Source of the DNA: an uncultured Candidatus Saccharibacteria bacterium
GTDB lineage: Bacteria; Patescibacteriota; Dojkabacteria; SC72
Reading direction: 5' to 3'
Length of the DNA stretch: 30,359 nt
NCBI GenBank assembly: GCA_964544555.1
Contig: CAZJBF010000004.1
Location: forward strand, 1-30,359
Position numbers and translations under genes: made by a program. The number at the start of each line of letters is the position of its first letter. Within the stretch, counting starts at the first letter, position 1. Positions 26,716 to 30,310 of the stretch are shown one piece after another. The notes under the pieces are model-generated. The model saw nothing but the letters and a program-made list of their open reading frames with translations. It searched no databases and was not told where the DNA came from.

Positions 26716-27056
26716 TTTTTATTTATTTATATTATCTTCTATTTCTATTCAACCTTTATTATACATTTTTAATATATATTGTGTGAAAGAAATAACTTGG
26801 AGAAAATTATTTATGAAGTTGATACATTCTATCACAAATATTTTAATTTAGCTGGGGCTTGAAGGAATTTGCTTATGTGATGCATACTATATGGAGAGAT
26901 ATCATAAGAATTTAATATACTAGAGGACAGAATGTCTTGACAAAAAACTTCAAAATCAAAGGATTCTATACTCATAGTATATTAAATTTGTATGAAAAAG
27001 TTGTTATAGTATATATGCAGTACTGTTTTATATGCATATCTGACTCAAATATATTG

Positions 27057-29358: not shown

Positions 29359-29483
29359 CATTTTCGTTTCCTCCTTCTAAAAAACATATATATCAAGAAA
29401 TAATAGTATAAAAGCTTTTTCTGTGATATACTCACCTCTAGTTGCACTTTATAACTAAAGAAAAGAATACAAAAGGAGAAAAA

Positions 29484-29942
29484 ATGGTCAAATTAGATAT
29501 TAAGAAGGACGATCCCTATTTGGATATTTTGAAAAGGATTCAAAATAGTCCATACATTGTTGGTTACTCGGATAGTTATTCTTCGAGAATATTTCTTTAT
29601 AAAGATGAAAGTAATAAATATCTTTTTGATGAAGTAATTCGAACAAAGGAAGGAATTATCCTTGTAATTAAGAATCTTTTTCCAACTGAAGTTATAACTC
29701 AATATGGGAAATGGAAATGTTGGGGAAATGGTAATGGAATTCCTAGAAGAGAGAGTGAAATAATGTCGTTATTGAATTTATTGGAAGCTAGGAAATTCCA
29801 GTGTCCATATCCTTGTTCATATAGAAAATATGAAAAACAGCCCTGTTCACATTCTTGTAAACATTCCAATGAAGAATACTTTTCTGTAGGAAAAGTGAAT
29901 GGGAAAGTATTGCCTGATGTAGTATTTTATTCTGAGAAATAA
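29484..29942 (+). CDS. Hypothetical protein with Cys/His-rich C-terminus
   Basis: AAGGAG SD before ATG 29484 (preferred over TTG 29442); TG-A-TATACT at 29424-29432; CPYPC...CSHSCKH. Confidence 0.6.
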   Translation: MVKLDIKKDDPYLDILKRIQNSPYIVGYSDSYSSRIFLYKDESNKYLFDEVIRTKEGIILVIKNLFPTEVITQYGKWKCWGNGNGIPRRESEIMSLLNLLEARKFQCPYPCSYRKYEKQPCSHSCKHSNEEYFSVGKVNGKVLPDVVFYSEK

Positions 29943-29963: not shown

Positions 29964-30045
29964 AGGCCTGAAGTTGGTATGAATGTGAGTATATTATATA
30001 TACTTCATAACACTACTTTGGATTTCTTCAGGCCTTTTTCTTCTT
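29964..30045 (+). terminator. Intrinsic terminator-like nested hairpin
   Basis: AGGCCTGAAG (29964-29973) / CTTCAGGCCT (30026-30035) followed by TTTTCTTCTT; inner stems TATGA/TCATA and AGTATAT/ATATACT. Confidence 0.5.
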
Positions 30046-30287
30046 GAGTTTGGAGTTTGTTTTGAGCTTTGAGCTTAGCTTGAATGTATAATAGTATCAC
30101 AACAAAGAATATTGATGTTTTTTAATCAGCAGTTAACATACTAGAGGATAACAGATCTTGACAAAAATATCCTACTTAATCTTATAGTATGTTAAATTAC
30201 TATTAAAATAATACGAAAAATATAGTCATGGAAAGAGTTCACATTCAAGCTAAGCTCACAGTGTTCTAGCTTAGAGCTCAAGCTCAG
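30044..30287 (+). repeat. Long imperfect inverted-repeat (rod-like) element
   Basis: Perfect 18-bp IR 30070-30087/30241-30258 and 11-bp IR 30133-30143/30185-30195 on the same axis; outer G.U-containing stem 30044-30058/30274-30287. Confidence 0.8.
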
Positions 30288-30310
30288 TGTTATGTTATAA
30301 TAAGATAATA

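Follow-up and report, generated by a model that had tools for sequence, protein, structure and literature searches.

Most knowledge of REP/RAYT systems comes from Proteobacteria, Cyanobacteria and Bacteroidetes. Such systems include the REPtrons, the BIMEs of E. coli and the REPINs of Pseudomonas fluorescens. The REPtron pattern is that of one RAYT per repeat type (PMC6006769), and RAYTs in general have been reported as vertically inherited (10.1101/119735). Class-2 TnpA-REP proteins carry the signatures NH[IFV]H, WQ and YIxNNP (PMC6006769, Table 1). In subclasses 2.6 and 3, RAYT-flanking repeats that lack GTAG and have a weaker or unusual secondary structure have already been recorded, as have 'double foot' REPs in subclass 2.4 (PMC6006769). 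In our literature search, REP/RAYT terms did not occur together with Patescibacteria, the candidate phyla radiation or Dojkabacteria in any paper; proteins named RayT are auto-annotated in Patescibacteria-type MAGs.

Here, we analysed an element directly upstream of metG in the genome of a Candidatus Dojkabacteria bacterium (665,815 bp in 56 contigs, 31% GC, 96.6% complete). The window, that is, the whole stretch of DNA that was analysed, is 30,359 nt long and corresponds to C4:1-30359 of that genome. Relatives of its MetG at 70-78% identity come almost entirely from MAGs labelled Candidatus Dojkabacteria or otherwise Patescibacteria, obtained from digesters and bioreactors, and the public runs that contain the window DNA (X1-X15) are bioreactor, digester and wastewater metagenomes. 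The element had originally been predicted to be a 6S-like or other structured RNA. We favour, at a probability of about 0.8, the reading of it as a non-autonomous, palindromic REP/REPIN (BIME)-type repeat from a family served by a RAYT (HUH/Y1, IS200 superfamily) encoded on contig C8 between secY and adk.

The inverted repeat upstream of metG

The plus strand of the 244 nt at 30044-30287 folded at -65.0 kcal/mol, compared with -44.7 +/- 4.4 kcal/mol in dinucleotide shuffles (z -4.65; 0/200 shuffles as good). The minus strand of the same stretch reached -61.7 kcal/mol (z -4.73), and the 187-nt core folded as single-stranded DNA gave a z of -5.10. All stems of the original prediction (the 18 bp stem, the 11 bp stem, the AGGATA/TATCCT stem and the outer stem with G.U pairs) were present as described (Table 1). 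The structure at 30044-30287 is a real, non-random DNA inverted repeat. Because the two strands fold equally well, the structure is a property of the DNA duplex rather than of one transcript strand.

The natural recurring unit is the 187-nt core, not the 244 nt that were first delimited. The size of the core recurs at C5:17844-18030 (also 187 nt) and C2:42305-42500 (196 nt), and the exact 14-mer GAGCTTAGCTTGAA that forms its left terminus also terminates copies on C2, C5, C10, C18, C30 and C36. Beyond the core, extensions of 27-30 nt per side consist of degenerate GAGCTT(T) units, and GAGCT-rich extensions of a similar kind lie at C5:17800 and C2:4075. A length polymorphism between populations was observed at 30061, where the contigs of run X3 are shorter by 7 nt, one TGAGCTT repeat of the GAGCTT(T) tandem array. 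The 13-codon ORF noted inside the element does exist, but it sits in a part of the arm that varies among the other copies.

Outside the two conserved blocks, the arms of the metG-side copy are ~65-75% complementary, and the copies in the genome are ~70% alike; this copy is thus probably old, decaying and inert. No presence/absence polymorphism of it was seen in contigs from three studies, in which the element was unchanged.

Table 1. Positions of the features discussed in the text; those given without a contig are window coordinates
Feature	Position	Strand	Remarks
Second inner REP doublet in the window	26894-27003	-	between a 563-aa ORF (-) and valS (+); nhmmer E 1.4e-15; CM 84.6 bits
166-aa Cys-rich ORF	29442-29942	+	between valS and metG in this genome only
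Long GC-closed hairpin and U-run	29964-30040	+	-25.5 kcal/mol, z -4.76
Outer stem needing G.U pairs	30044-30058 / 30274-30287		in the MFE fold
Left extension, degenerate GAGTTT/GAGCTTT units	30044-30070		carries the G.U pairs of the original prediction
Perfect 18-bp stem	30070-30087 / 30241-30258		axis 30164
Core palindromic element, 187 nt	30071-30257		outer terminus to outer terminus
Left outer inverted terminus GAGCTTAGCTTGAA	30071-30084	+	exact 14-mer
Inner REP doublet (REPIN-like hairpin)	30125-30203	-	arms 30125-30152 and 30176-30203; orientation set by TTGTCAAG; nhmmer E 1.5e-12; CM R1 73.4 bits, E 3.6e-11
Perfect 11-bp stem	TTAACATACTA 30133-30143 / TAGTATGTTAA 30185-30195		axis 30164, common to the 18-bp stem
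AGGATA/TATCCT terminal stem	30145-30150 / 30168-30173
Loop motif CTTGACAA	30157-30164	+	equals TTGTCAAG on the minus strand
Right outer inverted terminus	30244-30257	-	TTCAAGCTAAGCTC on the plus strand; pairs with the left terminus in the perfect 18-bp stem
Right extension, AGCTTAGAGCTCAAGCTC units	30258-30287
Extended -10 box TGTTATAAT	30293-30301	+	between the element and the metG ATG (30311), ~9 nt before the ATG
RAYT-like Y1/HUH gene	G000 C8:14816-15310 (L093:514-1011)	-	intact; antisense between secY and adk; 150-165 aa
Two other RAYT paralogues	C5:15499-15972 (L094:500-973); C1:61875-62357 (L095:476-958)		flanked by GGTCWGACCTAGGTC

A structured regulatory RNA gene on the plus strand, 6S-like or a new sRNA, forming a rod with a central bubble, would account for the strong rod-like fold, and on the plus strand of the window copy 9 G.U stand against 5 A.C mismatches. 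The 6S niche is also formally free, as RF00013 had no match in the whole genome at E<=1, whereas the same 6S model was positive in 5/14 control genomes. However, the search against Rfam, including 6S, returned nothing relevant in the region at gathering thresholds and no match at E<=10, and the minus strand folds as well as the plus strand. The G.U pairs had been read as a sign of selection at the RNA level, but C-to-T decay of the degenerate GAGCTT units in which they lie explains them; over 15 copies, G.U-type mismatches numbered 93 on the TTGTCAAG strand and 96 on the other (p=0.88). No convincing promoter or terminator was seen at the bounds of the element. A homologous element was present upstream of metG in none of about 37-38 relatives, whose regions were inspected and searched with the covariance model described below, hence there was no orthologous alignment in which conservation or covariation at metG could be followed. 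The sole RNA run covering any of the stretch, an activated sludge metatranscriptome (X22) of very low depth, too low to decide the matter, yielded no contig on the element; its one 210-nt contig was 96% identical to the 166-aa ORF and derived from the orf166 of a relative. We consider a regulatory RNA gene at this site extremely improbable, and the rod before metG should not be annotated as one.

The position of the element, directly upstream of metG and on the same strand, is that expected of a cis-acting leader (an attenuator, or a T-box-like or riboswitch-like element) controlling the expression of methionyl-tRNA synthetase. However, TGTTATAAT intervenes between the element and the ATG, and is by its sequence probably the metG promoter, from which a leaderless or nearly leaderless metG mRNA starting downstream of the element is predicted. 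Many relatives (L013-L052) keep this promoter-at-ATG layout without the element: the metG ATG is preceded at ~7-15 nt by a TATAAT box that often has a TG upstream of it, and no Shine-Dalgarno sequence was visible in those upstream regions, which suggests that the metG mRNAs of this Dojkabacteria genus are leaderless or near-leaderless. Additionally, there was no T-box or other Rfam match, and the same repeat adjoins unrelated genes and tRNA genes elsewhere in the genome. A metG leader is therefore a reading to which we give next to no weight.

On the other side of the element, the modelled hairpin with its U-run (Table 1) probably serves the 166-aa ORF as its intrinsic terminator and is not part of the element, and similar long hairpins followed by T-runs occur upstream of metG in relatives. 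As the element lies downstream of this separate terminator and upstream of the metG promoter, it is probably outside both neighbouring mRNAs.

At least 10 relatives have valS and metG ~100 nt apart, and in others different genes precede metG; here, the 166-aa ORF, the terminator hairpin and the element separate the two. The ~100-nt spacer is conserved in L014, L017, L018, L021-L023, L030, L036 and L037, where it holds a GATGTCCCnnTAGGGACAT hairpin across the valS stop codon and a TATATAATC...GATTATAT hairpin. The 166-aa ORF had no relative in Pfam, NCBIfam or Atlas, and a link between it and the RAYT ORF was rejected, the two showing no similarity. It should be noted that metG is intact and that the assembly breaks 72 nt past the element; the scaffold gap after 30359 consists of Ns, and the sequence then resumes with 50 nt that duplicate the start of metG (L001:1818-1916), an assembly artefact.

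A dispersed repeat family and a RAYT-like gene with the same arms

When compared with its own genome by BLAST, the element gave diverged matches on ~20 contigs, so that the further copies sought by the original prediction do exist. An nhmmer profile of the inner hairpin recovered 17 full doublets of 79-91 nt together with partial copies. The alignment of 17 inner-hairpin copies, including the metG-side copy (A1), served to build a covariance model (R1), and nhmmer and R1 detected 18 inner-hairpin loci in the genome at E<1e-4. All 18 are intergenic, three or four being beside or between tRNA genes and five within ~800 nt of contig ends, and relative to neighbouring genes they point both ways (7 co-oriented, 5 not). 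Many dispersed copies with target-site duplications had been named in advance as evidence against an RNA gene, and 18 diverged intergenic loci in both orientations were found, with no such duplications seen. The second doublet within the window is likewise intergenic, and lacks clear outer termini.

The copies at contig ends are those at C30:1, C36:132, C33:557, C1:793 and C22:9204, and such repeats help to explain the assembly breaks in these MAGs. One copy (C22:9066-9425) lies exactly between two tRNA-Arg genes and another (C18:4843-5216) exactly between two genes that are tRNA-Ala according to aragorn; in both cases, the paired tRNA sequences differ.

The copies share one architecture, consisting of an outer GAGCTTAGCTTGMA block, ~45 nt of poorly conserved arm, an inner arm, a loop of 25-40 nt and the mirror image of these parts. 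Each arm is ~95 nt long and two-part, the outer and inner blocks flanking a diverged middle. The inner arm has the consensus TATTTCATAATAATTTAAYnTACTAKRAGG, with the motif TTCATAAnnATTTAAYnTACTA. The GT[AG]G foot was looked for and was lacking: the arm consensus reads ...CCTCTAGTATATTAAA / TTTAATATACTATGAGG, and GTAG occurs in 2/17 copies only. No convincing self-hairpin was seen within a single arm in the copies of this genome; the arm of the congeneric genome G001 holds a 10-nt palindrome, TAAATATTTA.

Mean column identity among the copies in A1 is 69%, and we saw no sign of recent activity of the repeat in this genome. Hairpin pairing in A1 amounts to 81.5% of cells, compared with ~43% when the partners are slid and a column-shuffled expectation of 78.7%. 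Complementarity between the arms of one copy (0.66) barely exceeds identity between copies (0.61) and covariation is weak (26 doubly-changed cells vs 16.4 expected), so the aligned sequences suggest that arm pairing was mostly inherited from a palindromic master or ancestor. Compensatory evolution between the arms was considered on the same figures and set aside, as they show no selection for pairing beyond shared descent.

The genome encodes three Y1 transposases, and the metG-type arm surrounds one of them only, that on C8. At C8:14762-15345, two inner arms (scores 27.1 and 21.5) lie 584 nt apart rather than the usual ~80, and enclose a 165-aa minus-strand ORF. The flanks form a 51-nt inverted repeat (75% complementary) and still show outer motifs in degenerate form: AGTTTAGGCTTGCA at one flank and CTGCTTAGCTTCAA, as its reverse complement, at the other. 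The enclosed ORF matched Pfam Y1_Tnp (PF01797) at 56.3 bits (cut-off 23). Its best NCBIfam match, over the full length, was NF047646 REP_Tyr_transpos (REP-associated tyrosine transposase) at 46.8-64.4 bits, which is under the equivalog cut-off of 80. Its motifs PNHFHLL (HUH), FQGR and KYIRDNP fit the class-2 TnpA-REP signatures, and the HUH and Tyr region aligns with the IS200 transposase 2F4F. Database homologues, including those of Microgenomates and Woesebacteria MAGs, are named 'REP element-mobilizing transposase RayT'. The other two paralogues are associated with a different repeat: GGTCWGACCTAGGTC is GC-richer, overlaps the 3' end of each of the two genes and occurs at about five loci in the genome.

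The same arms therefore occur inverted around a RAYT gene and, without a gene, in at least 17 further copies in intergenic DNA. Because the ~18 scattered copies share the arms that flank the RAYT gene, we regard the element as most likely a small non-autonomous mobile element rather than a 6S-like RNA.

The features of the family also bear on the classical MITE model, in which an insertion sequence gives rise by deletion to a derivative, and a DDE-type transposase would recognize the GAGCTTAGCTTG terminal inverted repeats and generate target-site duplications. The conserved 14-nt terminal inverted repeats, the length of ~190 nt and the intergenic location are all in keeping with such an origin. 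However, no direct-repeat target duplication was seen at the ends of any copy, the flanks being unrelated or extending the palindrome; this absence is expected for HUH/Tyr chemistry. The only gene found between matching arms is of the Y1/HUH type, not DDE; the Pfam search of the genome covered Y1_Tnp only. A classical MITE is accordingly very unlikely. Of the MITE or cruciform that the original prediction had offered as one option, the dispersed palindromic copies stand and the target-site duplications do not, and the idea can be sharpened to a RAYT-associated, REPIN-like repeat.

By analogy with E. coli TnpA-REP and IS608 TnpA, a hairpin of the REPIN-like repeat formed on single-stranded DNA at the replication fork would be bound by a RAYT dimer, and the HUH/Tyr site would cut and rejoin the folded strand, copying or moving the repeat. 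This mechanism is drawn from the biology of E. coli TnpA-REP and of IS200/IS605 (PMC6006769; PMC3479197), and we infer the action of the RAYT on this repeat from it. Any local role, for example as a barrier to read-through or as a protein-binding site at CTTGACAA, would be secondary and is putative.

RAYT genes and arm variants across the genus

RAYT homologues were found in 19/22 congeneric genomes searched, and secY and adk have a gene of the C8 type between them in 12 congeneric genomes. Judged by this common site, the C8-type RAYT is a syntenic, vertically inherited gene. Each of two congeners has its own arm variant, TTCATAAATATTTAAGATACTA, with 22 occurrences in G001 and 13 in G003, compared with 0-1 for a reversed control pattern. 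The RAYT of G001 has arms on both sides; that of G003 has one adjoining arm at the threshold used, plus an inverted repeat across the gene. The arms of G001 are mostly singletons and highly uniform, and those of G003 are doublets ~140 nt apart. The near-identity of the G001 arms suggests more recent activity in that genome. As these arms are mostly singletons, the unit that moves is uncertain. Elsewhere, R1 detected 3-5 loci in each of four further congeners, whereas other genera of the order had none. Repeats of the GACCTGGTC type, which resemble GGTCWGACCTAGGTC, flank RAYTs and lie upstream of metG in some relatives (L046, L048, L106, L108).

The properties expected of a REPIN-RAYT system can be compared with these data. 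RAYT genes are flanked by an inverted repeat on C8 and also in G001 and G003, the dispersed copies are intergenic, hairpin-forming doublets (17 doublets among 18 loci), and each repeat type has one cognate RAYT that is low in copy number and vertically inherited.

The uniformity of the singleton arms in G001 is also what might be expected if the repeat, whatever its origin, were a cis element selected by the host, either as a site for a nucleoid or regulatory protein (at the CTTGACAA loop or an arm motif) or as a bidirectional transcription barrier. Along the same lines, TTGTCAAG is kept in 11/17 copies of the source genome plus two near variants, all copies are intergenic with several between tRNA genes, and E. 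coli BIMEs and Neisseria Correia elements carry IHF sites and affect transcripts (in part PMC3479197). However, the loop motif was not seen in the copies of G003, the orientation towards genes is mixed, promoter-like matches are not enriched, and host selection leaves the arms around the RAYT gene unexplained. A general promoter role of TTGACA in the loop was rejected, since 7 matches were found vs 5.3 +/- 2.0 expected and gene orientation is mixed; the loop of the window copy, read as a promoter (TTGTCA-18-TATGTT), scores 9/12, which is weak and not enriched over shuffles. We consider a host-selected cis element unlikely as the explanation of the family, and take the loop TTGTCAAG to be inherited from a master copy. 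By analogy with the IHF sites of some E. coli BIMEs, a protein-binding role of the loop is possible.

Returning to the RAYT-associated repeat, the genus-wide pattern leads us to speculate, tentatively and at somewhat less than even odds, that an ultra-small lineage of the candidate phyla radiation keeps a live, vertically inherited REPIN-RAYT system of atypical form; across the genus, its transposase gene would be fixed in antisense orientation at the secY-adk position of the ribosomal-protein cluster, with species-specific arm variants. If this were true, a REPIN-RAYT system would have been kept for host benefit despite extreme genome reduction, and a repeat with no GTAG foot and long two-part arms would represent a new structural class of REP. 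The secY-adk RAYT and its arm variants would make a compact natural system for studying why domesticated HUH transposases, together with their repeats, have lasted in genomes reduced to such an extreme.

Comparison with known systems

The resemblance to 6S RNA (RF00013) lies in the ~190-nt rod with internal loops. Unlike 6S RNA, the element has no covariance-model match, is strand-symmetric and multi-copy, and is not kept at one locus; its unpaired regions are decayed segments of the arms rather than a defined bubble that resembles an open promoter.

Correia elements (CREE/NEMIS) of Neisseria and other bacterial MITEs (ERIC, RUP and BOX), like the repeat described here, are intergenic, 100-200 nt long and bounded by terminal inverted repeats around a conserved central motif; hairpins form both in their DNA and in RNA read through them, and they can place promoter-like hexamers near genes. 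However, Correia elements make TA target duplications, none of which was seen here, and have no known cognate Y1 gene, whereas the arms of the present repeat flank one.

The closest likeness is to REP/REPIN-RAYT systems. As in REPtrons, E. coli BIMEs and the REPINs of P. fluorescens, a single Y1/HUH gene lies between inverted copies of a dispersed sequence. Most of the dispersed copies are inverted doublets able to fold into long hairpins on either strand. The gene for the transposase occupies one syntenic site with vertical inheritance within the genus, and there are several RAYT paralogues per genome, with an own repeat type per paralogue. The element differs from canonical REPs in that it is without the GT[AG]G foot, in that a single arm does not appear to be a clear palindrome of 21-65 nt, and in its arms of ~95 nt composed of two blocks (outer GAGCTTAGCTTGMA, inner TTTAAYnTACTA). 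In contrast to known REPIN populations, the ~18 copies are ~70% alike and do not form a tight population around a master sequence, and the host is a member of the Patescibacteria with a 0.67-Mb genome rather than a proteobacterium.

The RAYT motifs NHFH and YIxxNP resemble those of subclasses 2.4 and 2.7, a likeness at the level of motifs (PMC6006769), and FQ stands in place of the WQ motif. Subclasses 2.4, 2.6 and 3 were described from Bacteroidetes, Cyanobacteria and Planctomycetes; the element upstream of metG comes from a bacterium of the candidate phyla radiation. On these comparisons, the most likely identity of the element is an atypical, RAYT-associated repeat of the REPIN/BIME-like type, with long two-part arms and no GTAG foot.
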